In this document: positions 3,271 through 56,561 of the stretch, piece after piece
How positions within the stretch are numbered: the stretch's first letter is position 1
Layout: each line of letters begins with the position of its first letter
IMG/VR virus record: IMGVR_UViG_3300031787_000075
Coordinates: 1-64,000 of that record
From: a virus
Strand: one strand, 5' to 3'
Length of the DNA stretch: 64,000 nucleotides
Notes under the pieces: generated by a model
Told to the model about the DNA's origin: nothing
What the model saw: only the letters and a program-made list of their open reading frames with translations
The model's database searches: none
Position numbers and translations under genes: made by a program

Positions 3271-4143
3271 TCAAAAGTAACAAATTTCTTCAACATATTT
3301 CCAAGAAGCAAATTCTCTGCTTAAATGATTGAAATCTAATCCTATTGGACTTTTAATCATGTAGTCGCCTTTGTAAAACATTTTGTCCTTATTTTCAGGC
3401 AGAACCCCGGCATTATGTAATATTTTAACCTCCTTTAATCTTTCTATTTTTGAGGTGCTAAATGTGAAATCTAATTCTTTTGAAACCGAAACAGATTTTC
3501 CATAAGCATACATATTCCATAGAGTTGCCCACATTTCTGCTGTCCAAGATTGAATAGGGTGTTTAATTCCTACCTGTGTTTTATGGCTTTGCATAACCCT
3601 TAGTAAAGTTAGGCTATCTGCCTCGACTTTTTCCCAAAACTCTTTTGGAGTATCATTTAAGAAATACTGGGCGCCAATAACATTGTTTTTATTAAACTCA
3701 ATGATGGCAGGATTTATATGGATGGAATTAGCCATATCCTCTAGTAAGCTTTCACCTTTGCTTTTTATGTATTCCACCCCTAAATATGCCCTACAATCGC
3801 TTCCATACCACTTACAAGTGCATAGCGTTTCTAGTTGTAATGGCTCTATTAAAACAATATCAGAATCATGATAAAAGAATTTTTGCCTTAAATATTGAGA
3901 GTGCTTTGCCATGCCTTGTGGTTTATACATAGCAACGTATGTCCTTGGTTCTATTTCATAACAAAATATTTTTATCGGCAGCCTTTTTTCTAACTCCAAA
4001 AGACCTTGTGTTTTTTCTTTTTGAATTAAAAATATGGCATGAATGTCTTTCGGGTCTATGCCTTTCCTTATAAAGTTTTTGGAATAGACCTCTACCTGCC
4101 AATGAAAGTATGGTGCATCAGGCTGTGAACTTACATATATCAT
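3271..4143 (-). CDS. GT-A fold glycosyltransferase resembling HPAT/peptidyl-serine galactosyltransferase (protein O-glycosyltransferase-like)
   Basis: motifs YFHWQ, YVAMYKP, YHDSD (DxD), WTAEMWA, ILHNAG; ATGA overlap with the poly-Thr gene. Confidence 0.65.
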   Translation of the reverse strand: MIYVSSQPDAPYFHWQVEVYSKNFIRKGIDPKDIHAIFLIQKEKTQGLLELEKRLPIKIFCYEIEPRTYVAMYKPQGMAKHSQYLRQKFFYHDSDIVLIEPLQLETLCTCKWYGSDCRAYLGVEYIKSKGESLLEDMANSIHINPAIIEFNKNNVIGAQYFLNDTPKEFWEKVEADSLTLLRVMQSHKTQVGIKHPIQSWTAEMWATLWNMYAYGKSVSVSKELDFTFSTSKIERLKEVKILHNAGVLPENKDKMFYKGDYMIKSPIGLDFNHLSREFASWKYVEEICYF

Positions 4144-5579
4144 GGAGCTGGAATTGTTACTTCATAAATACATGGACCCAAGAAGAATATAAACTTAACA
4201 GGCAACGTATAAGGGGCAGATGGTATGGTAAGTGATAGTAAATCAATGTTTGTGCCAACTAAAACTCCAAATTCATCGTAAACATAATCAAAAGGACCCA
4301 ATGGGCTTCCTGTAAATGTTATGTTTCCATCAAGGTCTTGCCCTACAATCTCGTTAGGAGGACACTCTGTTGTTGTCGTTGTTGTGGTAGTGGTGGTAGT
4401 TGTTGTGGTGGTTGTAGGCATTGTGACAACAACATCGTATTCACAGCCTCCAATAGTGAATGTCCATGTTCCTATTTCTAAAGAGAAGCTAAATGGCAAT
4501 GTTATGTTATTATAAACAACATTAGAAGGGCTTGTTATTGTAAATGGACCCGAAGGGCTTCCGTTAAATATTATGTACCCAGGGCCTATTATATAAGTTA
4601 TTTCGTTTGGTGCACAAGTTGTTGTAGTCGTAGTGGTTGTTGTGGTAGTAGTTGTTGTGCTAGTAGTAGTGGTGGTTGTCGTAGTGGTTGTGGTAGTTGT
4701 AGTAGTCGTTGTGGTTATACCTATTTCGACATTATAAACACAAGAGTCATACTCTCCTCCAAAAACAGTAAACTCCCATGTTCCTGCCACATCTCCAATC
4801 ACATCAAAAACTTCCGGCAATTGAACCTCTGAAAAGAATTGAACTAACAAAGGATCGGAAGGAGTAAATTTTACATTAAAAACATAGCTTTCAAAATCTT
4901 TTGCCTCAAAAAGAATAGAAGACTCTGTAATTATTGAACCAACGATAGGTATTACAGGGCAGGAGTTTATTGTTGTGGTGGTAGTTGTGGTTGTAGTGGT
5001 TGTAGCTGTTACCGCGCAAAAATAAGAACACTCTAATGTTTCAAAACCTATACCATCGCTGTTTTTAAGTAAATTAAACTTATATGTTCCTTGTTGTATT
5101 CCCAGTTCTAATGTTCCTGAACTCACAACAAAATTTCCTAAATCTTGTGGCTCACCCAATTCAGGATAGTAAATAACATTGTAGGTTCCGTTTTCAGAAA
5201 TATTGAATACTAGAACTGTTTCTTGAACTGTGTAAGATATGATTATTGTGGGGCAATTTCTAGGTGCGACTGCAGGAACTTGAACTACTTTGTCGCAATC
5301 GTCATTGCAATTATCTTTTACTACATCATAAACACTCATACCTAAAACATTCATTACATACAATTCGCCAATCAATATCCTTGTGCCATCTTCTTTTTGG
5401 CAATAAACAAATATTTGAGCATCGTTAAGGTAAATAGAGGTTATGACCGTTTTTACAAAACAAACTTCATAATAGTATTTACAATCAATATCAGTCGATA
5501 TGAAATCTCTTACCGCTTTTATCAGATACGCCTCCGGACCTGAATTAATGTCGTTTCTATAAAAAGTTTGTATTGGCAT
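4140..5579 (-). CDS. mucin-like virion protein: small Cys-containing beta domains separated by three poly-Thr tracts
   Basis: Thr tracts at 4971-5003, 4617-4715 and 4368-4415; directly downstream of the muzzle gene. Confidence 0.7.
   Translation of the reverse strand: MPIQTFYRNDINSGPEAYLIKAVRDFISTDIDCKYYYEVCFVKTVITSIYLNDAQIFVYCQKEDGTRILIGELYVMNVLGMSVYDVVKDNCNDDCDKVVQVPAVAPRNCPTIIISYTVQETVLVFNISENGTYNVIYYPELGEPQDLGNFVVSSGTLELGIQQGTYKFNLLKNSDGIGFETLECSYFCAVTATTTTTTTTTTTINSCPVIPIVGSIITESSILFEAKDFESYVFNVKFTPSDPLLVQFFSEVQLPEVFDVIGDVAGTWEFTVFGGEYDSCVYNVEIGITTTTTTTTTTTTTTTTTTSTTTTTTTTTTTTTTCAPNEITYIIGPGYIIFNGSPSGPFTITSPSNVVYNNITLPFSFSLEIGTWTFTIGGCEYDVVVTMPTTTTTTTTTTTTTTTTECPPNEIVGQDLDGNITFTGSPLGPFDYVYDEFGVLVGTNIDLLSLTIPSAPYTLPVKFIFFLGPCIYEVTIPAP
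4368..5003 (-). repeat. three ACN-codon (poly-Thr) tracts of 11, 33 (one Ser) and 16 codons
   Basis: NGT triplet runs on the plus strand with mixed synonymous codons. Confidence 0.95.
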
Positions 5580-5581
5580 TT

Positions 5582-8500
5582 TTAAGACCTTTCTGAACCT
5601 ACTACTTCCATTGAACTAGAGTACAATATTACTATTTCGTTTCCATTAAATTCTGTAATTGTATTGCAGGCATGACCACGCAAATCATCTCCGTTTATCA
5701 ATCCATTTCTTTTTTGGGCATCGTTTAAAGGAGTTCCAAATCTTAAATAGTTTTTGTTTGTGGCAGCATGATAAACGCCTTCTTTCATCCTGTATTGAGC
5801 GCCTTTTATTTCGCTTTCTTGTCCATTAGGATTTACTTCGGAAGGTGGTATGGATTGAAATGAAATCAATGGAACCCTATTGCTTCTTAAAGAATGAGCG
5901 TCAAAAACTTTAACCTTCTTTGGTTCTACATTTGTAACCACACCAGCTTTCATGGTTTTAGCCTGCCCTAAAAAATTTAAAAAATCATCTCCGCTATTCA
6001 TTATCCAAATATTACCTTGATAGAAAGCTACTCCTAATCCAACGCAATCTCCATAATTATCAATAGGGTTTATTCCAAAACAATGGTCGTAAAATCCATG
6101 CCAGTAACCTTTATCCGGACACCAAGCTATTGCATCGTAAAACTCTTCATTTTTGGTTATTAAAACGTAAAGTAATTTGTTTTCTTGATCCCAACCAGTA
6201 ATAACCTCCGAATCTGCTTCTCCTGATAATTGTTCTGAAACGTCTTGCCAAAACCTTATGGCCTTTCTTTTGGATATGTCTTCGCTTCCGTTTGGAGAAT
6301 TTCTAACAAAGCATCGGTTTAGCACGTCAAAAAAGTAAACACTTCTTTCGTTTACATAGACAGACTCCGGATGCTTGGTTCCGTAACTATCCTCTGAATA
6401 GTTTATTGAACCTATTAGCGAATCCGTAACAACAAGCTGTGTGCTTCCATCTGCGTTTTGAATTTGTCTTCTACCTATAAAGGCAGAACTGATATTGGAC
6501 CATTGCAGTATCTTCATGGTGTAACCAATAAGCCTCAACCCTGTTATTGCTCCATACTTTTGCTCCAGTATTCTGTAATCGCCTTCATAAAAAACATTAG
6601 TGTTATTTACGTTGGTGTTTTCAAATAGCTTTCCTGTCCACCTCAACATTGAAAATATGTTTTGACTTTTCATGTTAGGGGTTTCGGCCTGCACCCTTCC
6701 TTTGGAATAAAATTCAGACCTCCACCATTCAGATATGCTAAAACTTTCTATATGGTATTGTCCAGGCTTTGACGCATCTGAACCCATAGACCTCCATCTT
6801 TTGTAAATATTGCCTGCATAGGTTTCAAATCCTGAACCTAATCCATAAGACCTTGCTTCTGTTCCGGGGTCAATTATCTCTCCGTATTGAATACCTGAAT
6901 CATACTCATTCATTGGCAATTCAAAGTAAACCGGTTCAAATCCTGGCTGATAAACCTCAAATAAAGTATTGTCACCTATTTTTGAGGCAGGATACCCGAA
7001 ATCTGAAATGCTTATTACAGGATATCCGCTTCCATCTAATTTAACACTCAATATTTGAACATCTATGTATTGAGGCACAATTATTCTATTGGTATCATCC
7101 AAATCGTTGTCGTGTTGGGTTTGCGTTAAAAACCTTAACCTGTTTCCTGCCCATTCAGTGTATTCAAAATCAACCACTCCCTTTGAACCAAATCTTATAG
7201 AAGAAATTGTTGGGTTATTTCCTTCCACAAAAAACTTATAAGAAGCTACGGTTATTTCAATCACATTATCTACATAATGTATATTCGATAAAGTAAAAAA
7301 CGCGCATTTTTTTACGTTGCATTTATGGACTATTTTAAAATACTTTGCCCATATCGGAGGTTGTGTTGTTATGTTTATTTTGGCTCCGTACTTCTTAGGA
7401 ATGTATTCATAGGAATCTGATATTGGATACCTTTCTTGAACAAATGGTATGTATAACTCTCCTAAAACCTCTGTTGCGCCCTGCCTCATAAATTCATCAA
7501 AATGAACTATGGCAAATTTATGTGTGGCACCTTCTTTAAATGCTTGTTCAGGATTGTTTGTGCTATAAACATAAGAGTCGTTTATTTTATATCCTATCAA
7601 TGGATTTACTAATGTTCCATATAAATAGTTGCTTACAGAGTTCCAAAATATATCGGCTCCAACAATATTAGTTAAAGCAATAGAAAGATTTGTTCCAAAA
7701 GTATTTAACGAAGCTATGTCTGCAGATGTTAAAACATAAGACCAACTATAAGTTTCTGTGTCTGTCGGAGAAGAAACGATTGAATATGTTCCATAAACAA
7801 TATCTCCTACACTTCTGCTTGCCACAGAAGACACTATTGATATGAAATAAGGAGGTGTGGGGTCAATAACCACTAACTCTATTATTTTTTCAGGGTAAAA
7901 ATTAAAAACCAAGCTTTCTTCTATTTCTTCTATTTCAGCTTCCACTCCAATTGGATTGTAACCCTCGGTTATATCTCCATATAAAACTTGGTTTCCTGGA
8001 ACTATTTCTTGTTGGTTAGCTAATTGAGGTATGGCATAAAAATTTGTTTCGGCTTCGATATCGCTTAATGCGATCGTTTCTTCATCTCCGTAAAAATTAA
8101 CAGAATTTACTGGGGCATCTATTTCAGCAAACCTATACCAATTAGGATTTGTTTCTCCCGAACCTGCTCCATTTCCTTCCCTAACAAACCATTCAACCTT
8201 TTCAACGGTTTCATGTATTGGCGCTGTACTATAAACAGAAATGTAGTTGAAATCGTCTGAACCTGATATTGGTCTATCAAAATTTAAGTAAAAGCCTTCT
8301 TTTTTCCATAACAAACTTATTTCGCTAAATGGGCTTAAAGGGGAGTATTCTCCATCCTTGTACTTGTATCTTAGCGCGAATTGGTAATGGTTGTATGGCA
8401 GAAAGTTTGTCTTCCTATTAAAGTCTTTTTGAAAAGAAAGCATGGGGCTTCTTTGCGGCTGAATCTTGCCAACACTAATCCAAAACTTATCTATATCTAA

Positions 8501-9106
8501 GCTTCCACCTTCCTGCAATTTAAGGTAAACATCAACGGTATTAAGTCTTTTTGGAATATCTACCCCATCTGTCCAAAACAATAATTGAACTGGTATGTCA
8601 TTCCCAAAAACAGGATGCAATGGTTCTCTTTCCGGCCAATCAGAAATTACTTTTCCTGTTTCTACTATGAAAGGATTTTGAAACCTCTTTGTGAAATTTA
8701 ATACATCACCCCAATTTAATGGAGGTATTCCTGGGCTGTATAAAGACAATGCTTCGATAAAAGGAGTTAATCCTATTGGGCTTCTCCAATATCTATAAAT
8801 GGCATGATAGCCATTACTATTCATATTGAAAAATATTATAGCATTGTTTTTTATGTCTTTACACCATGCCACACACTTGTTACTGCCTATTGGCAATTGA
8901 AAGTTATTTGTAAATGATTGCGTAACCGCGTTCCAAAATCTAGTCACTTTGGTCCACGACTTTAAAGACTCTGCTGCACCTTTGTTTCTAGCACTAGAAG
9001 AGTTTGCTGTGGCATTTCTCAAATAAGAGTAAAAACCCGGCTCTATGTTTCTGAAATCGCTGTCCAGATCCAAACCATTTCTAAATAAACTTTCTTGTTC
9101 AGGCAT
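5582..9106 (-). CDS. tail nozzle/muzzle (stabilisation) protein, crAss-like
   Basis: 1174 aa beta-rich; GLDLDSD start, YQFALRYKYKDGEYSPLSPFS, LYGDITEGY, YGAIT, YG..HPES, YFFD, KEGVYHA, GDDLRG motifs. Confidence 0.85.
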   Translation of the reverse strand: MPEQESLFRNGLDLDSDFRNIEPGFYSYLRNATANSSSARNKGAAESLKSWTKVTRFWNAVTQSFTNNFQLPIGSNKCVAWCKDIKNNAIIFFNMNSNGYHAIYRYWRSPIGLTPFIEALSLYSPGIPPLNWGDVLNFTKRFQNPFIVETGKVISDWPEREPLHPVFGNDIPVQLLFWTDGVDIPKRLNTVDVYLKLQEGGSLDIDKFWISVGKIQPQRSPMLSFQKDFNRKTNFLPYNHYQFALRYKYKDGEYSPLSPFSEISLLWKKEGFYLNFDRPISGSDDFNYISVYSTAPIHETVEKVEWFVREGNGAGSGETNPNWYRFAEIDAPVNSVNFYGDEETIALSDIEAETNFYAIPQLANQQEIVPGNQVLYGDITEGYNPIGVEAEIEEIEESLVFNFYPEKIIELVVIDPTPPYFISIVSSVASRSVGDIVYGTYSIVSSPTDTETYSWSYVLTSADIASLNTFGTNLSIALTNIVGADIFWNSVSNYLYGTLVNPLIGYKINDSYVYSTNNPEQAFKEGATHKFAIVHFDEFMRQGATEVLGELYIPFVQERYPISDSYEYIPKKYGAKINITTQPPIWAKYFKIVHKCNVKKCAFFTLSNIHYVDNVIEITVASYKFFVEGNNPTISSIRFGSKGVVDFEYTEWAGNRLRFLTQTQHDNDLDDTNRIIVPQYIDVQILSVKLDGSGYPVISISDFGYPASKIGDNTLFEVYQPGFEPVYFELPMNEYDSGIQYGEIIDPGTEARSYGLGSGFETYAGNIYKRWRSMGSDASKPGQYHIESFSISEWWRSEFYSKGRVQAETPNMKSQNIFSMLRWTGKLFENTNVNNTNVFYEGDYRILEQKYGAITGLRLIGYTMKILQWSNISSAFIGRRQIQNADGSTQLVVTDSLIGSINYSEDSYGTKHPESVYVNERSVYFFDVLNRCFVRNSPNGSEDISKRKAIRFWQDVSEQLSGEADSEVITGWDQENKLLYVLITKNEEFYDAIAWCPDKGYWHGFYDHCFGINPIDNYGDCVGLGVAFYQGNIWIMNSGDDFLNFLGQAKTMKAGVVTNVEPKKVKVFDAHSLRSNRVPLISFQSIPPSEVNPNGQESEIKGAQYRMKEGVYHAATNKNYLRFGTPLNDAQKRNGLINGDDLRGHACNTITEFNGNEIVILYSSSMEVVGSERS

Positions 9107-16307: not shown

Positions 16308-18638
16308 TTATTGTTGAGTTTGTGTGGTTTGACTAAGTTGAGGTATCAAATAAGTCTTTAAAACCTCGTTTTGTAGTTTTGAGGTTTCGTTTAGATCGTT
16401 TGCTTGCATTTGGAACAATCCTTTAATTAGTTCCTTCATCAATTCATCCTTTCTCTTCTGTGCTTCAAATGCGGCTTTTTCGGCATTTGTTTTTCTAGCT
16501 TCTTCTCCAGTTAACCTAATGTTTTCTTCCTGAATTTTTCTTGCCTCTTCTTTTCTTAGGTTTAATCTGTAATTCAAAAGCATCCTAGCTTGTTTAAGCA
16601 TGCCTCTAAATACCATTTCGCTAATCATTAGGTAGTCTGCTGCAGAAATGTTTTCACCATCCTTTCCAGGTTTTAATGCTTCTCCAAGAGTTTGTAGCAT
16701 TGTTTGGGCATAAGCACCATTTGGAATAACCTCTATTTTTATTCCATAAGCCCTGTCAGCATACTCTCTGCTTATTTTGAAATTTTCTATTGTGGCAGAA
16801 CCCAATATCGGGTAGTAAACATCATAACCCTCTCTGTATTTTACTTGCTGCCTTATTCTTTCAATAGCGTTTTTGGCGCCACTTTCTCTAACTTTTTCCC
16901 AGCTTTTAACTACACCCTGAATAACATCGGATGCGGAGGCCATGGTTTGATTTATTTCTGTGGCAGTAACCTCTCCTCCTTTTGGAGCAACGGCAGAAAG
17001 CCTATCAATTCCAGAAAGTTCAGCTATGAAATTAAAGTTTATTTCAAAGGTGGAAACTAATTCGTTAAATAATGGGCCTATACCTCCTTCCAATTTTTCA
17101 ATTGGCTTGCCTTGATACATATTATACTTTCCATTGTGAGTGGTAGCTTTATAGACCATTCTTCCGGATGCTTCGTATATATTGATAAGGTTAATAGGCT
17201 TTAAATCTCCATTTCCAAGGTTTATGTTATTTAGCGCATTAAACTCTATTGCCAAACCATTTGGAGCGGCAGTAGCCATCGCGTTTTGCATTTTCAAATA
17301 TGCCAATTCTATTTGGTCTAATGGTCCAATACATCTTTCAACCATAGACTTTCCAGGCAATGCGTCAGCATGAATACTTAGCCTAGGAACTCTTTTAGGA
17401 CCTACTCTTGGAATATCGTTTTGCAGGCCATAATCATAGCAGATATCGGAACCAATTATCCATGTGCATTTATAAACATTTGGAATGTTTCTAACAACGG
17501 TCTTTTTGTTTGGAGTATCCCAAACCTTGCCCCAGTCTGATTTGCCATAAATAGTTGTTCCGTATTTTGTTGTTCTTTTGGTTCTGTAATTTATGTCATT
17601 GCTTAACATTTCGCATTGTACGGTAGGAACAAGGTAATTGTCGTAAACATAAGTATTTGTTACAGGGTCGTAAATGTTTGTCATGTCGGCTTGCATTTGG
17701 TCCCATATAAATGCAGGATTTCCAAAAAACTCCTGATATTTTTGGCAATACTTTACCAATTCTTTTTCAGGCAATCCTGTTTTTGCTCTAACATTTGCTA
17801 TTGTTTCAAATCTTAAGTATCCCCAAAAGCGACTCTTCTTAAATCCTACCTCTCTGTTTCCATCTATAATAACTCTAGCAAAGTCTAGGTATTCGTATTT
17901 TTCTACTCCATCTACATCGACAAAGTCTAGGTATGCTCCACAACCAATGGCAAGCATGTCAAAATAATATCTCCTTCTAACGTCTTCGATATCGCTTATG
18001 TAATCAGTATATGACAATGCCTTTTCAAAATCTACCTCATGCTTTAGTTTAAATCCTCCTGCATTGTTAAATGCTTCTAATTCTTCCATGCTAGAAGGAA
18101 CGTACTTTGTGCCTGAATCTTTGTTTGGTATTTTGGCAGCTTTTCTAATGGCCTCTTCTTGCTTTCCAAATTGCAGTTCAAAATACTTATCCCACATTTC
18201 ATTTTCTCTTTCTACACCTGAAATTGGGTCTATGGCAGAAACAGTTATTTTATGGTCTTGTTGCTCTAACCTTCCAATTACTTTTGATAAGTATGCAGGC
18301 ATAGGCGAGAATATGGACCAATCCACATTGTAATACCCTTTTCTATTGGCATTGTTAGATATATTATTTGACTTCAATAAAAAGTCTTTATACTTATCGG
18401 TAGGTTGGTTTCCTGTGGCATAAAGTCTTAGCAATTCAAATCGCATCATTCTATCCACGCTAACATAAGACTGGTTATTTAGCATTTTTGAATACAGGGC
18501 TTTTGCCCATGCCATACACCATTCAGGACCTTTTTTTACTTCCGGGTCAACATCATCAGAAGGAAACGTATATGCCTTTCCTATATACTCTTCATCTTTA
18601 TAAAGGAAATCGGGTTTAACTGCTTTATTGTTTGCCAT
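16308..18638 (-). CDS. portal protein (crAss-like)
   Basis: 776 aa after terminase; LRLYATGNQPTDKYKD, YYNVDWS..PMP, AIDPIS motifs. Confidence 0.9.
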   Translation of the reverse strand: MANNKAVKPDFLYKDEEYIGKAYTFPSDDVDPEVKKGPEWCMAWAKALYSKMLNNQSYVSVDRMMRFELLRLYATGNQPTDKYKDFLLKSNNISNNANRKGYYNVDWSIFSPMPAYLSKVIGRLEQQDHKITVSAIDPISGVERENEMWDKYFELQFGKQEEAIRKAAKIPNKDSGTKYVPSSMEELEAFNNAGGFKLKHEVDFEKALSYTDYISDIEDVRRRYYFDMLAIGCGAYLDFVDVDGVEKYEYLDFARVIIDGNREVGFKKSRFWGYLRFETIANVRAKTGLPEKELVKYCQKYQEFFGNPAFIWDQMQADMTNIYDPVTNTYVYDNYLVPTVQCEMLSNDINYRTKRTTKYGTTIYGKSDWGKVWDTPNKKTVVRNIPNVYKCTWIIGSDICYDYGLQNDIPRVGPKRVPRLSIHADALPGKSMVERCIGPLDQIELAYLKMQNAMATAAPNGLAIEFNALNNINLGNGDLKPINLINIYEASGRMVYKATTHNGKYNMYQGKPIEKLEGGIGPLFNELVSTFEINFNFIAELSGIDRLSAVAPKGGEVTATEINQTMASASDVIQGVVKSWEKVRESGAKNAIERIRQQVKYREGYDVYYPILGSATIENFKISREYADRAYGIKIEVIPNGAYAQTMLQTLGEALKPGKDGENISAADYLMISEMVFRGMLKQARMLLNYRLNLRKEEARKIQEENIRLTGEEARKTNAEKAAFEAQKRKDELMKELIKGLFQMQANDLNETSKLQNEVLKTYLIPQLSQTTQTQQ

Positions 18639-18650
18639 AATGTTTCAAAA

Positions 18651-20993
18651 TTAATCATTATACTCTCTTTCTACAAAGATTTGTCTATCAGTTGTTTTTT
18701 CTCGTTCTGCACTTTTCTTCTGCTCTTCATTCAAATATACTATTTGGCTGCCCATAATAGCGCCACCATTGGCAACTAATAAGTCTAAATCTGTAAAATC
18801 TTCTATACTTCCTGCATCCTTACATTGCTGCATAAATCTTATATGCTTTTCTCTGTGGCCATGCTTTTCTATGTAATCTCTTACAGAATTAAATAGCTTT
18901 TGTTGGCTACCCCTACTTGTAAATCCTGGAGTATTTTTAAGTTTTTTAGTGGCAGGGTCAATATCATATTTCATATAGCCTCCGAAACCTTTTTCATCAA
19001 AATAATGCCATATAGCGGGAACGTCAATTTCAGGGTATGACATAGCATTGTAATACAAGGCAGCTTTCAATTGGTCTTCACAATATTCTGTTAAGGTACC
19101 TGGCCTATACAAATATGTTGCTACGGTGGTGTGACTGGACCATTGACTAACAGGAATGTTGTGATCTATTCTTTCATCGTAATTCCAAAATATGGAACCA
19201 CCACCTAATGACATTCTTTTACCTTCTGTTTTGTTGGCCTTAAATGGGTCGCCTCCATGAGTAAATTCTTCTGAAAATCTTGGGTCTGGTTCAAAATGAA
19301 ATCCGTTGAAAATTCTTTTGTTGTTGTGATGTATAAGTTTTGTTACATGCCATCTGCCATCGCTTTTTTCTACAAACTCAACTTTGCCTCCAAATATGTT
19401 ATCTACCCATTCAAAATCTCCAATTCTAAGTTCTGGAGGATTAAACTTAAGTTCATCAATCCTGTCTTCTATTATCTTGGAGTTAAATCCTATTTCACCA
19501 TCCTTTGTTCTAAAACACTCTCTAAATTTAACTGGATATAGTCTAACCTCTTCATTGTAACTATCAATATCTCCAACTTTTATGTAGGCATCTCTTTGGC
19601 TTTTTAAGGCAACTTTAGAACCAACGGTTATAAATTTTCCGTTTACGCCTTTTACAGGAACTTTAGGTGTTTCTACTACCGTATCACCATATTCATCAAC
19701 ATAACCTTCCAAACCATCCCATGCAGGAAAAAAGAAATTCATTAATCCGCTAGGTGTTTGCCCTAACGCATCTCTTGTCTGCCAATGCGAAAGTTTTGAT
19801 AGTCTAAAATAAGAATCTCCACCCTTTTTGGTCATTTCGCCAACGGTTGAAGGATAGCCTATAAATCCGTTTACAACGGCCCTATTTCCTTGCGCAACAC
19901 ATGGCAGCAATACCTTGTGTCTTGCATCTACTTTTTCTGCAGTTGTTTTTCCTCCCTCGTCTGCCAATAACCAATACAGCTTTAAACCATCGTAAAATGA
20001 ACCACTTGCCTTGTCTGAATAAGTTATCCTAGACCTTAATGCTTTGTTTTTAACGCTGTCCTTGTCAGCTTTTGTTTGGTTCTTATTCTTTTGAGGTTTA
20101 AATTCTAATCCGGCAGAAGGGTCGTCATATCCACCAGTCATTGGTTTGAAAAAGAATGGCATCCTTCTCCATCCAGGCAAAAGTATTGTGTCGTAAATCT
20201 CCCCGGCTTTATCTCCTGTATCGGCAATTATTCCACTTTCTATACCAGCTTTATAAATTGTTTCAAGGTATTGAGCGCACAAATGTTTGTTTGTTGCTCC
20301 ATCCCTTCTGCCTTTTGGATATTGATATCCAAGCATGGTTCTTTTGCCAACGTCTTTTGTTTTTGGTTTTTTGCCATAAATGGTTTCTTCGTAAACCATT
20401 CTTCCGTATTCATCAAAAACAGGCGTTTCAGACGTTGTGTAAGCGTATTTTACGGCATGATACCATCTTCTATCTTTATCCCTGTAATCAGGTGGTGTAA
20501 GGTCTGCAAACAACCAAAAATTTAGATAGGTATAATGCCACCCATCTATGTATGTGGGCTTTCCTTTTATAAACTGCCATTCCCCAACAAACCTTTTTTT
20601 AATGGCTCTTTTTATCCAAACAATTTCATCATACCAATCAACTCCTGAATTTTGTTTTAAAATATCCCAAATCCTGTCTGAATTATTTTCTTCTTCAAAA
20701 ATTAACCTTTTAAGTCGTTCCGGCATTTCATCCTTTACAAACTTTTGCTCTAATGCAGGTAAACCCCAGTTAACCATTTCATGGAGTTCGGGCATTTTTA
20801 TTTTGACAAAATTGTGGTTTATTGTATGAACATTCCACTCCTCTCTAGGTTGAGGCAACTCAATCCATATCTCATGCAAATCTTCATCTCCCCTGTTTAA
20901 AATAACATACTTGTCGGGTCTTTTATAGGTGACAAGTGTTTTTGGGTCGATTTCATCTTTATATCTTGATATTAAATCAGACAGGTAACTCAC
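18651..20993 (-). CDS. terminase large subunit
   Basis: HYTYLNFW..PDYRD, Walker A KGRRDGAT, Walker B LLADEGGK, nuclease GGDPF and DLLVA. Confidence 0.93.
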   Translation of the reverse strand: MSYLSDLISRYKDEIDPKTLVTYKRPDKYVILNRGDEDLHEIWIELPQPREEWNVHTINHNFVKIKMPELHEMVNWGLPALEQKFVKDEMPERLKRLIFEEENNSDRIWDILKQNSGVDWYDEIVWIKRAIKKRFVGEWQFIKGKPTYIDGWHYTYLNFWLFADLTPPDYRDKDRRWYHAVKYAYTTSETPVFDEYGRMVYEETIYGKKPKTKDVGKRTMLGYQYPKGRRDGATNKHLCAQYLETIYKAGIESGIIADTGDKAGEIYDTILLPGWRRMPFFFKPMTGGYDDPSAGLEFKPQKNKNQTKADKDSVKNKALRSRITYSDKASGSFYDGLKLYWLLADEGGKTTAEKVDARHKVLLPCVAQGNRAVVNGFIGYPSTVGEMTKKGGDSYFRLSKLSHWQTRDALGQTPSGLMNFFFPAWDGLEGYVDEYGDTVVETPKVPVKGVNGKFITVGSKVALKSQRDAYIKVGDIDSYNEEVRLYPVKFRECFRTKDGEIGFNSKIIEDRIDELKFNPPELRIGDFEWVDNIFGGKVEFVEKSDGRWHVTKLIHHNNKRIFNGFHFEPDPRFSEEFTHGGDPFKANKTEGKRMSLGGGSIFWNYDERIDHNIPVSQWSSHTTVATYLYRPGTLTEYCEDQLKAALYYNAMSYPEIDVPAIWHYFDEKGFGGYMKYDIDPATKKLKNTPGFTSRGSQQKLFNSVRDYIEKHGHREKHIRFMQQCKDAGSIEDFTDLDLLVANGGAIMGSQIVYLNEEQKKSAEREKTTDRQIFVEREYND

Positions 20994-38299: not shown

Positions 38300-38632
38300 A
38301 TGGCAAAATTCACCAAAAAAAAGAAGGTAGAGGCAGCTAATTTGCAGATAGTGTATATTCATGCCTTATGCAAGGCCATCCACCACTCAATTAAGCTTCC
38401 AAAAGAAAATATTGGCTTAATCGGTACTGCCGAGGAGAAGGAGGCCATAAATCAACTATCTGCCAAAGTAAATTATTTTATCAAGACCTATGATAAGATA
38501 TTTGAGCAAGACCTTATGGCAAAGAAATATGTCATGGGCAATTTTAATAGCATAGACGAATTTTCGATGCAAATACTAGAACAAGTAGAATTAATTTTAT
38601 CCAAACCACATCATGAACAAAACAAACACTAG
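38300..38632 (+). CDS. hypothetical protein
   Basis: ORF in the early run. Confidence 0.6.
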   Translation: MAKFTKKKKVEAANLQIVYIHALCKAIHHSIKLPKENIGLIGTAEEKEAINQLSAKVNYFIKTYDKIFEQDLMAKKYVMGNFNSIDEFSMQILEQVELILSKPHHEQNKH

Positions 38633-38987
38633 AACCTTGGAGCAGGTGTTCCAAGACCTCACAGAATGGCAGATGGCCAAATTTCCAAATCCAAACCTCA
38701 ATGGATTAGTAAATCACATTAGAGAAGAATTGGTAGAGTTTGAGGCAGAAATTCAAGCCCTAACTGCCGAAACCCGAACCAAAGCCGCCACAGAGATTGT
38801 GGATGTAATTATCCTATCGTTTCAAGCACTTAGGGTAGTGTTACAGCCCATTAGTGATGAAACCAACACAGAAATGCTAAAATCGGTACTGGAGGAAAAA
38901 CTATCTGTACTTAAGGATAGGCAATATCCTACCGAGCCCGACCAGGATGGCAAGTTCAAGCATTTAAAAGGAGGTCAAGATGTATAA
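38613..38987 (+). CDS. MazG-like dATP/dGTP pyrophosphohydrolase (DUF550-like)
   Basis: WQ..KF, HIREELVE, EIVDVII, EKL....R.YP......FKH. Confidence 0.7.
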   Translation: MNKTNTRTLEQVFQDLTEWQMAKFPNPNLNGLVNHIREELVEFEAEIQALTAETRTKAATEIVDVIILSFQALRVVLQPISDETNTEMLKSVLEEKLSVLKDRQYPTEPDQDGKFKHLKGGQDV

Positions 38988-42251: not shown

Positions 42252-42755
42252 TTAGTCTAGGATAATCCAATCTTCTGCTAGGGTGTCGCTTCCTGATGGT
42301 GTCCAAGTGGCAATATCTTCTTGGGCTGTTTTTAATGCCCAATAAGCACGATAGGGAACCATTGCGTTTTCTCCAAAGTGTGCTTTCGCTGCACCTGTTT
42401 GAGCGGGGTAACTTGCGGCAGGTACAATGTAGGCGAACATTCCACTTCCGTTCCAACCCAACCTTGCTACTCTCTTACCAGCTTTTGCGGCTTCGGTAGC
42501 GTGTCCAAAGGTTAAATGACCATTGGTTCTGTAACTTTCATCAAATGCTTTGGCAGGACTCCAAGAAATGTAATCATCGCTGTAAGCAACGACATAGCCA
42601 ATTTCGGTAGGGTCTTCATCGTCTGGCACTGACCAACCCTTAAGGTTGCAGTAATCTACTTTCGACATTGGCGCGGCATGGATAGTCTTTGTACCCATGT
42701 GCATTTGTAAGCTGATTTTAGAGCCTTCTTGTGGCCCATCTATAATTTTTGTCAT
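42252..42755 (-). CDS. DUF2829 / Tad2-like nucleotide-sponge anti-defence protein with extra N-terminal domain
   Basis: TFGHATEAAKAGKRVARLGWNG...WTPSGSDTLAEDW; N-terminal GTK...GY.V.Y...YISWSP..F..SY. Confidence 0.8.
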   Translation of the reverse strand: MTKIIDGPQEGSKISLQMHMGTKTIHAAPMSKVDYCNLKGWSVPDDEDPTEIGYVVAYSDDYISWSPAKAFDESYRTNGHLTFGHATEAAKAGKRVARLGWNGSGMFAYIVPAASYPAQTGAAKAHFGENAMVPYRAYWALKTAQEDIATWTPSGSDTLAEDWIILD

Positions 42756-53336: not shown

Positions 53337-53587
53337 AACAATACCTCCTTTTCGTTTTTATGCTCTACTTTGTATTCTGTCACCAGCTTTGCAATAGAAA
53401 CTCTTACTCCATTGTATAAAACCTTTCTAATGCCATTTTTATTTGTAACACTAGCTTTTTTTAATCCCATGAACTTCTTACCAACTTGTCTTGGCAACAA
53501 ATAAAAGTCTTCACCATCGTAAGCTAAATGGCTGTATGGCGGCTTAAAACCAACCCTGTAAGTGAATTTTTTATCTGATATAGGCAT
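53333..53587 (-). CDS. hypothetical protein
   Basis: coupled at both ends. Confidence 0.55.
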   Translation of the reverse strand: MPISDKKFTYRVGFKPPYSHLAYDGEDFYLLPRQVGKKFMGLKKASVTNKNGIRKVLYNGVRVSIAKLVTEYKVEHKNEKEVLL

Positions 53588-54357
53588 TACAATAAATTAT
53601 CTATTAAAACTTTAAATCCGTTGTTAGAAACAAAATCATAATGGTTCTTGCCTTGACTAACTACATTAGGAGCATAGGTGCAAACCTCTAGCATCCTAGG
53701 AACCTGATTAAACTCTGCTATTGCATAAAACAAGCTTTGGTTTCCTATGTATAATTGGCAGCTTTTAATTAACTCCTCTGCTTCTTTAAGGCTTTTGACA
53801 TCGTTTTTTATAGCGGCAGGAACATCTTGTTTAAAAATATTAAACTCTTCGTCTGTGCCAATAAAAACTATGTTGCTGTCAATTTTATTCAGATACGAAT
53901 AATCAATGTATGGGTTTTGCCATCTCGTGGTTCTGTTAACCAAAACAAAATTTTCTTTTATTAGTGAGTAATCTGTGTTAAAAAAGAGTTTTCCTGTATT
54001 TAGTTCCGGATAAGCAAAAACATACCACTTTCTGATATCTGAATATGGTATTGCTATTGACTGGCCCAATTCTTTTACATAATCTAAATCCAAACATACT
54101 TGTCCATTATATTTTGAAACTTTGATATCCAAACCTTCCAACCAATCCTTTATAAATGATATGGCATCATCGTTAATTCCTCCAGGATACAAATGCCCTT
54201 CGTCTTTCAGGTTTTTTAGAGCTGAATTATCCCATAAACAATACTCTAAATCAAAGTCGTGAACCTCTGAATATGCTTTTAGCACCATTACGCTGTAAAC
54301 CACATCTCCTAGCCTACCGCAATGCTTAACTCTTAATAATTTCTTAGGTGTGCCCAT
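53587..54357 (-). CDS. GT-B glycosyltransferase (GT9/heptosyltransferase-like)
   Basis: GRLGDVVYS N-terminal motif; LKEAEELIKSCQLYIGNQS. Confidence 0.7.
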   Translation of the reverse strand: MGTPKKLLRVKHCGRLGDVVYSVMVLKAYSEVHDFDLEYCLWDNSALKNLKDEGHLYPGGINDDAISFIKDWLEGLDIKVSKYNGQVCLDLDYVKELGQSIAIPYSDIRKWYVFAYPELNTGKLFFNTDYSLIKENFVLVNRTTRWQNPYIDYSYLNKIDSNIVFIGTDEEFNIFKQDVPAAIKNDVKSLKEAEELIKSCQLYIGNQSLFYAIAEFNQVPRMLEVCTYAPNVVSQGKNHYDFVSNNGFKVLIDNLL

Positions 54358-55115
54358 TTCTGTATTAATTTAGGTAAATCTTCGTGAATAGGTGTAGTAT
54401 CAAATACGTCATGCCATGCCCAAGGATTAAACTTATCCATGCCCTTTAGCTTTTTATCGCTATCCATGACGAACACGTCTTCCTGCATGGTTTTGATTTT
54501 AGTTGGGTGAATGTATGGGTCACGAACAAATCCCATGTGGTATATTCTAAGGTGAGGAATACTGGCAGTATTTGTTATTGGCTTTAATGAACCTATGCTT
54601 TCGGCATCTCCATGCGCACCATAAATTTTATCTGATTTAACCAACCTAGTTACTATTGTACTACAAGGCTGTCCATTTTTTGGATGATCTAAATATTGGT
54701 ATGGCGAACCCCATAAATTAAACCTAGTGAACTGGTATTCGTTATACTTGGAATCAGAATCAACTATTCCCCTTAAAACATCGTAGCTGTCTTCATGCAA
54801 AATTTCATCTGCTTGCAAGCTAAAAACCCAATCGCAATTTCTCATTTTTACTAAATGGTCTATGCCTAAATTGGTGTAATAGCTAAGTCTTAGTTTGCCA
54901 ATTCTTTTAAAACTATTCCATTCGTAATCGGTGCAAAATATTCTATCTATGTTTTGAATAGAATTAATAATATCAAATGTTTGGTCCTCGGTTTTGATAC
55001 AAACCACGCAAACATGGTCGCAAACCTGTTTCAAGCACTCAATGGCTTGCTGAAATGGGTAATCTAGTTTAACACCATCTCTTATGAACAATACTCCTCC
55101 TAATTTATTTTTCAT
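54333..55115 (-). CDS. GT2-like glycosyltransferase
   Basis: LDYPF, EDQT, WVFSLQADE, IYHMGFVR. Confidence 0.8.
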   Translation of the reverse strand: MKNKLGGVLFIRDGVKLDYPFQQAIECLKQVCDHVCVVCIKTEDQTFDIINSIQNIDRIFCTDYEWNSFKRIGKLRLSYYTNLGIDHLVKMRNCDWVFSLQADEILHEDSYDVLRGIVDSDSKYNEYQFTRFNLWGSPYQYLDHPKNGQPCSTIVTRLVKSDKIYGAHGDAESIGSLKPITNTASIPHLRIYHMGFVRDPYIHPTKIKTMQEDVFVMDSDKKLKGMDKFNPWAWHDVFDTTPIHEDLPKLIQKWAHLRNY

Positions 55116-56475
55116 CGTGCCAACAACATAAAGGTATTTGTAATCCTAAAATACATGGTTGGCCTTGGGTTCCTCCTTCTATATGCCAACACCCATGATA
55201 CTCGCATTTGCCTTGCCTAATATCAATATCTGATAGGTCTAAATGAATCAATTCAGGCTTAACGCTTCCAAAATAAATTACAGACTTCTTTTTCATAGCC
55301 ACAGCTAAATGAGAAGGACCGGAATCTATTCCTATGAAAAATTCGCTATGCCATATAATTGACATAATAGTTGTAATCGAAAGATTAATGACAGGAATAA
55401 CGCCTTCAACATTATAAACATCCTTATCCAACTTTTCGCCATTGCCAATCAATATAACATTGGTTCCTGAATCAACTATCTCCTTGCATATTTTAGCAAA
55501 ATTATCTACTGGGTTTCTGTAATTCTGCTCTCTTCTATCAATGTGCATTACGGCATAAGGAAAATCAAATATTCTATTAGTGTCATTCAACTCTATTCTT
55601 GGTGGGTTAGCTTTTGGCCTTTCTCCAAATGCTGCAAAATAAGCCTCGATATGATTTAGGGTTGGCATCATTTCGTATGACATATCCAAATCCACAACTA
55701 AATCATAATCTATTTGACTTGTATGTAATCTAACCGTATAGGGTTGAAAAGTAAAAACTTGTTCTAGCCCTGGTGTGGTTTCTAAATAAACGGTATAACC
55801 TTTTTCGCTAAAATACCTTAATACTGGCTCCACTTGAATTACATCTCCAAGCGCTCCCATTCTCTTAACCAAAACATTCTTGCTTGCTATTTTGTGAAAT
55901 GTGCCATGAAAGCCAAATGTTTTACCTTTAGGAGGATTAAGTTCATAGGAAAATTTACTGGCAATATGCTCTGGGGCAAATTTACACCCGCTAATTTCTA
56001 AGCTGCCTCTCCATAACCTGCCAATACATTCATCCTCCGGACCTAAAACAGGCTTATCCTCTGTTAATTCAAGTAGCTTTTTACTCCTTAAACTAAAACC
56101 TCCATTACCTACGTTTCTACCATCAATGTAAAGCCATGGCGCTCCAATGTAATCGTATTCTAAAAATTCGTTGGACCATTCGCTGCCATTAATTACAAAT
56201 CCATCATGCTGAATCACCAATACATGACTATAATCCAAGTTCAAGCTGTTTAACAGGTGCGGCATCTTGTTAATAATAAACCTGCTGTAATCATTAGCAT
56301 CTACAATTTTGTCTATTTTGTAGGTAATTGTGTTGGTAACACTAATACTAAGGTCCGTAAACCAAACCACCTTTTGAGGTCGAATGTGTTTTAGGGTTTG
56401 ATTGATTGCATATACGCAATCGCTATAATTCTTTGTGTCAGCAATGACGACAACTATTTGTTTTAAATCAATCAT
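55105..56475 (-). CDS. two-domain glycosyltransferase: DUF5672-like GT-A + GT9-like GT-B
   Basis: QHDGF, YDYIGAPW, GNGGFSLRS, PED, FGFH; then GALGDV and FIGIDSGPSHLA; real start ATG 56475 (the ORF-track extension overlaps the tRNA-like element). Confidence 0.85.
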   Translation of the reverse strand: MIDLKQIVVVIADTKNYSDCVYAINQTLKHIRPQKVVWFTDLSISVTNTITYKIDKIVDANDYSRFIINKMPHLLNSLNLDYSHVLVIQHDGFVINGSEWSNEFLEYDYIGAPWLYIDGRNVGNGGFSLRSKKLLELTEDKPVLGPEDECIGRLWRGSLEISGCKFAPEHIASKFSYELNPPKGKTFGFHGTFHKIASKNVLVKRMGALGDVIQVEPVLRYFSEKGYTVYLETTPGLEQVFTFQPYTVRLHTSQIDYDLVVDLDMSYEMMPTLNHIEAYFAAFGERPKANPPRIELNDTNRIFDFPYAVMHIDRREQNYRNPVDNFAKICKEIVDSGTNVILIGNGEKLDKDVYNVEGVIPVINLSITTIMSIIWHSEFFIGIDSGPSHLAVAMKKKSVIYFGSVKPELIHLDLSDIDIRQGKCEYHGCWHIEGGTQGQPCILGLQIPLCCWHDEK

Positions 56476-56479
56476 ATTG

Positions 56480-56561
56480 TGGGGAGGACAGGATTCGAAC
56501 CTGCACGATGTTTTAGTTGTCGTTACCAACCTTACTACCACCATTCCACATCTACCTCCCC
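56480..56561 (-). ncRNA. tRNA-like element (intact acceptor and T arms, non-canonical D/anticodon region)
   Basis: GGGGAGG...GCAGG-TTCGAAT-CCTGT-CCTCCCC-A. Confidence 0.65.

Follow-up and report, generated by a model that had tools for sequence, protein, structure and literature searches.

The gene at positions 3271..4143, minus strand, of the 64,000-nucleotide stretch considered here (positions 1 to 64,000 of the IMG/VR virus record IMGVR_UViG_3300031787_000075; hereafter, the window) encodes a 290-residue protein that is probably a phage protein O-glycosyltransferase, with poly-Thr in virion proteins as its acceptor. Glycosylation is something that we infer from computation. The protein has a predicted GT-A glycosyltransferase (GT) fold with an invariant DxD motif, the start codon of its gene overlaps the stop codon of a gene for a 479-residue protein with three poly-Thr tracts (4140..5579, minus strand), and genes for its relatives in other phages often stand beside genes with such tracts. 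Where phages with homologous capsid or tail proteins are compared, enzyme and tract are gained and lost jointly. The record itself is a linear virus of 73.5 kb, rated complete, of which the window covers 64 kb.

The enzyme and the adjacent poly-Thr protein

The enzyme matches PHROG 4417, a family of unknown function, with an E value of 1.5e-66 (enzyme residues 1–287 on profile positions 1–288 of 293). It has no Pfam family at E ≤ 1 and no NCBIfam match, and its PDB sequence matches are at chance level only. The family is large and mostly carried by phages: a word-indexed search returned 697 relatives, and none of the 120 listed has a Pfam domain or a name that hints at function; an exhaustive profile search gave 1044 clusters at 50% identity. 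At least 577 IMG/VR stretches contain a member, as do species-representative bacterial genomes, with 141 members. UniProt-derived viral structure entries of the family are labeled "uncharacterized." All 77 matched GenBank phage records fall below 60% identity and come mostly from phages of Lactobacillus, Enterococcus, Staphylococcus, Lactococcus, and Clostridium, with Chryseobacterium phage MA9V-3 the closest at 39.5% identity. Across 56 aligned sequences, D93-S94-D95 (the DxD motif; codons at 3859..3867, minus strand) is invariant, and W15, Q16, Y69, Q159, M204, W205, and H243 are invariant family-wide as well. The motifs that an earlier, sequence-only reading of this DNA had listed for the enzyme (Y..WQ, Y...KP, DSD, and W..EM) are all present and belong to these family-wide invariants.

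The 290-residue protein is predicted with high confidence to fold as a GT-A glycosyltransferase. An AlphaFold2 (AF2) model built from a 56-row alignment (predicted local distance difference test (pLDDT) 97.2, predicted template modeling score 0.92) is a single Rossmann-like α/β/α domain that can be superposed on solved GT-A enzymes, and the DxD motif follows directly after the central strand (residues 88–91). Foldseek gave 291 PDB matches at E ≤ 0.001, headed by WbbM, UGGT, blood-group GTB, LARGE1, LgtC, and glycogenin. A second structure ranking, by an aligner independent of Foldseek, was led by the Skp1 α-galactosyltransferase AgtA (15.3, 209, 3.4), LgtC (14.8, 224, 3.4), and glycogenin (14.7), followed by WbbM (14.3), GlyE (13.7), UGGT (13.6), and the PBCV-1 capsid glycosyltransferase A64R (11.2). 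The model and the two structure comparisons thus agree on the GT-A fold with DxD that the sequence-only reading had proposed to look for. Sequence identity to the nearest solved GT-A structures is 6–13%, and we read the likeness as one of fold and not of family membership, because no curated GT sequence model, Pfam GT8 included, is among the matches of any of 56 family members at E ≤ 10.

In the CAZy classification, these nearest solved enzymes fall in the retaining families GT8, GT77, GT24, and GT6, and several of them act on protein hydroxyls. By analogy with these folds, the phage enzyme may form a retaining (α) linkage. That it would instead move a non-glycosyl group to the tracts, either a nucleotidyl group or, in the manner of GlcNAc-1-phosphotransferase, a sugar-phosphate, is in our estimation very improbable.

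The putative acceptor of sugar transfer lies immediately upstream. Its translation confirms the three tracts in 479 residues that had been read from the sequence: 11 Thr at residues 193–203 (4971..5003), 33 residues made up of 18 Thr, one Ser, and 14 Thr at residues 289–321 (4617..4715), and 16 Thr at residues 389–404 (4368..4415), all on the minus strand. It is the only open reading frame (ORF) of at least 80 residues in the window with a run of eight or more Ser/Thr. The tract codons are mixed (ACA 23, ACT 16, ACC 16, ACG 4, and AGC 1), no single-codon run exceeds three, and in Tandem Repeats Finder output the three Thr stretches appear only as imperfect arrays of period 3 to period 21 with 71–92% matches. 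The codon mix does not differ from the Thr codon use of eight neighboring genes (chi-square p 0.75); selection therefore appears to act on the residue, as the sequence-only reading had argued from the mixed ACN codons. The junction with the enzyme gene reads CCATGATATATG, in which the poly-Thr stop codon TGA overlaps the enzyme ATG, so the ATGA overlap noted earlier is real.

Between the tracts, the protein is modular. An N-terminal part (residues 1–108) is followed by four diverged, Cys-bracketed repeats of ~70–85 residues (109–192, 204–288, 322–388, and 405–479), with cysteines at 109/184/188, 207/280, 322/379, and 406/470. Segments D2, D3, and D4 are diverged copies of one another (BLASTP E 1e-4 and 9e-7). 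Of the small Cys-bounded β domains proposed earlier, the Cys bracketing is plainly seen, and the β character comes from a single-repeat model (four-row alignment) that is all-β with six strands at low confidence (pLDDT 63.7). Database comparisons of the poly-Thr protein gave weak "Mucin" low-complexity matches in Pfam, no PHROG, and no credible neighbor in the ESM Atlas (best feature score 0.76, TM ≤ 0.40). The N-termini, judged by inspection only, carry no signal peptide.

Linkage of enzyme and tract across phages

The genomic neighborhood of the enzyme was compared in 81 phage loci, comprising the best 80 of at least 577 IMG/VR stretches together with MA9V-3, and in the best 80 of 141 relatives from bacterial genomes; both sets include near-duplicates. 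Three short loci (L082–L084) were all that a search of metagenomes with the enzyme yielded, and they were left out. A tract was defined as a Ser/Thr run of at least eight residues or, under a relaxed rule, a Thr run of at least six. An ORF with a Ser/Thr run of eight or more occurs in 55 of the 81 phage loci, always on the enzyme strand, and in 48 of the 81 it ends no more than 150 bp upstream of the enzyme start. When tracts are counted by gene position (one locus was dropped because the gene caller missed the enzyme), the gene just upstream of the enzyme carries one in 47/79 cases, with 14/71 at position −2, 6/57 at −3, 2/78 at +1, and 3/69 at +2, compared with 6/246 for genes four or more positions away (Fisher p 1e-28). 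Most apparent misses have runs of 6–7 Thr in the gene at −1, and under the relaxed rule 74 of 80 viral loci are positive. The link holds across identity clusters of the enzyme (38/54 at 90%, 21/32 at 70%, and 10/13 at 50%). The linkage of homologues to poly-Thr/Ser genes on which the sequence-only reading had made its proposal depend is thus seen across phages.

Structural loci of other phages served as controls. The control loci, 80 in number (794 kb, 625 genes), surround muzzle-like structural genes from other environmental phages; no gene in them carries a tract under either rule (0/625) and no enzyme homologue is present. The muzzle-like homologues in IMG/VR are 24–40% identical to that of the window and were therefore treated as control material rather than as close kin.

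Enzyme and tract are also present or absent together. Starting from one capsid with a tract, 80 loci were collected whose major head protein is 46–100% identical to it. A capsid could be called in 78 of them, and the sequence downstream was long enough in 65; five of these 65 have both the enzyme and a poly-Ser/Thr tail, 60 have neither, and none is discordant. All five positive loci carry poly-Ser/Thr tails on the tail protein and on a protein of ~108 residues as well. On a capsid tree calculated with the tails excluded, four changes are needed to explain the positive loci, and well-supported branches force two or more of these changes. In a second set, built on the major tail protein of PHROG 238 (n = 27), 12 loci have both and 15 have neither, with the positives in two separate identity bands. 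Pooled, the two sets give 17 loci with both, 75 with neither, and 0 discordant.

These counts bear on the reading in which the enzyme acts on something other than protein (phage DNA bases, teichoic acid, or O-antigen) and the tracts are plain flexible linkers that carry no modification and whose proximity has other causes. We consider this quite unlikely: it is at odds with the concentration of tracts at gene −1, with their scarcity in distant genes and absence from control genes, and with the lack of discordant loci among phages with homologous capsid and tail proteins. In addition, none of the window ORFs scanned gave a base-hydroxymethylase or thymidylate-synthase-like match, the enzyme has no evident membrane segment, and its gene lies within the late structural operon of a phage of lytic type.

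The proteins that carry the tracts differ from phage to phage. Four kinds of protein end in such a tract in Bacillota phages and prophages: the major head protein (PHROG 10), the major tail or tail-tube protein (PHROG 88, 238, and 6686), a small head-associated protein (PHROG 909), and a protein of ~105 residues (PHROG 749). These carriers are subunits that are present in many copies and face the outside of the particle. Large proteins of unknown function (PHROG 38559, 28177, and 2295) carry the tracts internally in aquatic and jumbo phages. Among the window phage, MA9V-3, and locus L010, the enzyme alone is homologous and the tract proteins are unrelated. What is conserved is therefore the pairing of the enzyme with a Thr run and not a given substrate protein, as expected for an enzyme and its acceptor motif.

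Two further features of these neighborhoods were seen. Large, collagen-like proteins of Gly-Thr-Ser triplet repeats (GTSGTSGSSG...) are encoded one to three genes downstream of the enzyme in aquatic and jumbo loci (L003, 10338–12920; L006, 8287–12255; L011, 9108–12917; and L002, 7001–7612) and could be further Thr-bearing acceptors. In MA9V-3 (L001), two tract proteins upstream of the enzyme (5606–6343 and 6709–7995) resemble each other over an N-terminal stretch of ~50 residues that precedes the Thr/Ser runs, as though different glycosylated extensions had been joined to a shared anchoring module.

It is also possible to read the pairing in another way, with the enzyme acting on neighboring proteins for which the tract is a spacer or docking element, or with another enzyme starting on the tracts and this one extending the glycan. 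The other enzyme might be encoded by the host or be one of the phage DUF5672/GT9 and GT2-like proteins at 54333–56544. The presence of these further candidate glycosyltransferases in the window speaks for such a division of labor, as do the many family members fused to a second GT domain, which make multi-step glycans likely in some lineages, and the C-termini of the acceptors of mycobacteriophage Che8, which lack a Thr run. However, the enzyme is the sole conserved partner of the tracts in most linked loci, the DUF5672/GT9 protein has no homologue in five other records that carry the enzyme and poly-Thr pair, and the tracts are the only feature common to otherwise unrelated neighbor proteins. 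We therefore regard this arrangement as unlikely and return to direct modification of the tracts by the enzyme.

The enzyme would then be a soluble, cytoplasmic, metal-dependent GT-A glycosyltransferase made together with the late structural proteins. Before or during virion assembly, it would move a sugar from a nucleotide-sugar, perhaps a UDP-sugar, to the Thr (and Ser) hydroxyls of homopolymeric tracts in the cytoplasm. In the window phage, for which the choice of acceptor draws on analogy with the family-wide pattern, the three poly-Thr linkers of the 479-residue protein would receive the sugar. The product would have an N-terminal attachment part and four small β domains spaced by three extended, mucin-like glycosylated linkers, and the resulting glycan coat might serve in stiffening, in shielding from proteases or antibodies, or in adhesion; the sequence-only reading had also suggested that it might bait glycan-foraging hosts.

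Several points weigh against this assignment. The loci compared are best-scoring subsets with near-duplicates and are not independent samples, the gene calls were crude (longest non-overlapping ORFs), and the relaxed tract rule was picked post hoc, after the misses had been inspected. Even under that rule, 6 of 80 viral loci lack a nearby tract, as do 8 of 45 short-form genome loci, some of which are on short contigs. Within the window, the other candidate glycosyltransferases could act on the tracts instead. A search with residues 1–192 of the poly-Thr protein found no relatives at E ≤ 0.001, its place in the virion is deduced from gene position alone, and its tracts are inter-domain linkers, whereas those of the best-annotated relatives are C-terminal tails of capsid and tail-tube proteins. 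Finally, a poly-Thr neighbor occurs in 0 of 34 long-form chromosomal loci of Bacteroidota, and the family is therefore not tied to poly-Thr everywhere.

Long forms, phage context, and wider meaning

Many members of the enzyme family are 500–790 residues long. Among 37 long members scanned, the second domain is GT2 in three, Glyco_transf_7C in two, GT6 in one, a weak GT25 match in one, and radical-SAM/SPASM in one; 27 have no second named domain. Two long members, P0142 (658 residues) and P0126 (779 residues), are fusions with radical-SAM/SPASM, and one member has a methyltransferase domain just under the Pfam cut-off. A well-supported clade contains 39 chromosomal genes from Sphingobacteriales and Chitinophagales that encode a long form of ~570 residues.

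Four such chromosomal loci, from Chitinophaga, Pedobacter, Mucilaginibacter, and Sphingobacterium (L251, L305, L256, and L302), were examined; the enzyme, here ~570–710 residues long, lies around position 5001 of each. A LanC-like protein is encoded nearby in three of the four, one sub-threshold SPASM match was seen, and another locus has a C39-peptidase ABC exporter. Thioredoxin/AhpC-fold proteins and several small upstream ORFs are further neighbors. LanC-like proteins, SPASM domains, and C39-peptidase exporters are hallmarks of ribosomal peptide maturation, and the loci look like an uncharacterized cluster for a glycosylated peptide similar to a ribosomally synthesized and post-translationally modified peptide (RiPP). 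The ESM Atlas structural neighbors of the enzyme include a PqqD-fused HPAT-like cluster. Judged by context, this cluster and the maturation-like surroundings fit a superfamily whose acceptors are peptides or proteins.

The minus strand of the window has a crAss-like layout, with the large terminase at 18651–20993, the portal at 16308–18638, and a muzzle-like virion protein of 1174 residues at 5582..9106 (PHROG 14478, E 1.5e-36; the Pfam crAss_MUZ_C match is sub-threshold, with E 0.071). The muzzle-like gene is directly upstream of the poly-Thr gene in the same tightly packed operon, with a gap of 2 nucleotides. The pair had been placed between muzzle and ejection genes; the muzzle side of that placement has the PHROG 14478 match behind it, whereas the proposed ejection genes are without family matches. 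From its gene position, the poly-Thr protein is probably a fiber or decoration near the tail muzzle. A giant ORF of ~5400 residues, also on the minus strand, extends from 57227 past the window end to record position 73444 and may encode a giant virion protein as is typical for crAss-like phages. Its sole family match, to PHROG 22413 (unknown function), covers residues 657–887 of the in-window part.

Just downstream of the giant ORF, three minus-strand genes at 53587–56544 may make up another glycosylation module. The first encodes a 479-residue protein (55105–56544) with DUF5672 (E 6.8e-16) and Glyco_transf_9 (E 7.7e-9) domain matches and a weak NCBIfam likeness to heptosyltransferases, including an autotransporter O-heptosyltransferase model (E 3.9e-6, far below the cut-off). 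It is followed by a GT2-like protein with a sub-threshold match (54333–55115) and by a protein for which no family match was found (53587–54357). The DUF5672/GT9 protein is not counted in the conserved module because of its absence from the five other pair-bearing records. Elsewhere in the window, a 167-residue protein (42252–42755, minus strand) has a Tad2-like (Thoeris anti-defense 2) domain (E 6.2e-21), and a 124-residue protein (38613–38987, plus strand) matches the Pfam dATP/dGTP pyrophosphohydrolase family (PF04447, E 4e-7). Such pyrophosphohydrolases accompany base-substituted genomes in some phages; no partner enzyme for this one was seen among the window ORFs scanned.

We lean toward a more general proposal, with rather less assurance than we have in the function of the enzyme itself. 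PHROG 4417 would be the core of an undescribed and widespread "poly-threonine code" for phage self-glycosylation, in which any virion protein that gains a Thr homopolymer, as a C-terminal tail or as a linker, becomes a substrate. The module would move freely among the capsids, tail tubes, fibers, and decoration proteins of Bacillota, Bacteroidota, aquatic, and jumbo phages (the 1044 clusters mentioned above), and the superfamily, remotely akin to plant hydroxyproline arabinosyltransferases (HPATs), would also glycosylate ribosomal peptides in natural-product clusters of Bacteroidota. In the literature searched, with subscription journals outside its scope, we found no description of the enzyme family, nor of poly-Thr tails on phage structural proteins that occur together with a glycosyltransferase. 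Phage self-glycosylation as such is known; what appears to be new is the enzyme family, the simplicity of the acceptor signature, and the far broader range of hosts.

To our knowledge, mycobacteriophages are the only phages for which experiments have demonstrated that the particle is glycosylated by phage enzymes, and there virion glycosylation blunts antibody recognition. If the proposal is correct, another enzyme family, one that is far more widespread, does this kind of job with a signal, the Thr run, that can be read from sequence, and glycosylated virion proteins could be predicted directly from genomes. Phage isolates of Enterococcus, Staphylococcus, Lactobacillus, Lactococcus, Clostridium, and Chryseobacterium would be affected, as would crAss-like and jumbo phages. 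There would be consequences for phage immunogenicity and pharmacokinetics in therapy, for phage adhesion to mucus and polysaccharide, and for the reading of virion structures and proteomes in which densities or mass shifts still lack an explanation. The compact pair of enzyme and tag could also be of use in cytoplasmic protein glycoengineering. The pair is directly testable, since it is carried by cultured isolates such as Chryseobacterium phage MA9V-3, Lactobacillus phages Semele and iLp84, and Clostridium phage phiCTP1.

Comparison with known protein glycosylation systems

Mycobacteriophages use glycosyltransferases of their own to modify the C-termini of their capsid and tail-tube subunits, two proteins described as glycosylated in PMC12363180 and PMC12619734; in Bacillota phages with relatives of the window enzyme, it is these same two proteins that bear poly-Thr tails. 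The resemblance does not extend to the enzymes. A profile of the enzyme family aligned to Che8 gp108, gp109, and gp110 with hhalign probabilities of 0.07%, 0.06%, and 0.44%, and none of the 77 matched GenBank phage records is a mycobacteriophage. These three Che8 proteins, Corndog gp38, and phage Myrna reportedly figure in the account of mycobacteriophage virion glycosylation given by Freeman et al. in 2023. A Thr run is absent from the C-termini of the Che8 capsid and tail proteins, unlike those of the Bacillota relatives, and the Che8 enzymes are encoded at the far end of the genome, away from their acceptors, whereas the window enzyme adjoins its putative acceptor. The hosts also differ, being Bacillota and Bacteroidota for the enzyme family. 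In the window, moreover, the tracts lie inside a protein of their own, as linkers, rather than at capsid or tail termini.

Other protein-glycosylating GT-A enzymes resemble the window enzyme in fold, at the 6–13% identity given above. They include AgtA (GT77), which acts on Skp1, glycogenin (GT8), UGGT (GT24), and GlyE (GT8), an enzyme of the pneumococcal serine-rich-repeat adhesin pathway. The PBCV-1 enzyme A64R, which serves capsid glycosylation with atypical N-linked glycans in a chlorovirus, a virus of eukaryotes, is a weaker structural match than the GT8 and GT77 enzymes.

The sequence-only reading had likened the enzyme to HPATs and peptidyl-serine galactosyltransferases. There is a structural hint of the HPAT likeness: three clusters that bear PF23452 (the HPAT family) are listed among the structural neighbors of the enzyme in the ESM Atlas (TM 0.76–0.80), and in a viral feature-neighbor cluster 10% of members have PF23452. 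The profile itself (cut-off 23.9 bits) has no match at E ≤ 10 in the enzyme, 55 relatives, the phage genome, or five homologue-bearing genomes; it is likewise matchless in 301 Bacteroidota and 14 control genomes, a negative without a positive control. Kinship with HPAT/GT95 is thus a structural lead only, short of family membership. HPAT and peptidyl-serine α-galactosyltransferase put the first sugar on hydroxyls in homopolymer-like tracts of extended structural proteins. HPAT (GT95) and GT96 enzymes act on hydroxyproline or Ser and are Golgi-anchored, whereas the putative acceptor of the phage enzyme is Thr and the enzyme is predicted to be soluble.

The mucin-type GalNAc-transferases (GT27) offer a further comparison. 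They are retaining GT-A enzymes with a DxD motif that start glycans on dense Thr/Ser tracts, and the window enzyme is like them in outline and unrelated in sequence. Unlike GT27 enzymes, it has no lectin domain and would act in the cytoplasm. Mucin-type glycans give rise to stiff, protease-resistant bottle-brush segments between folded domains.

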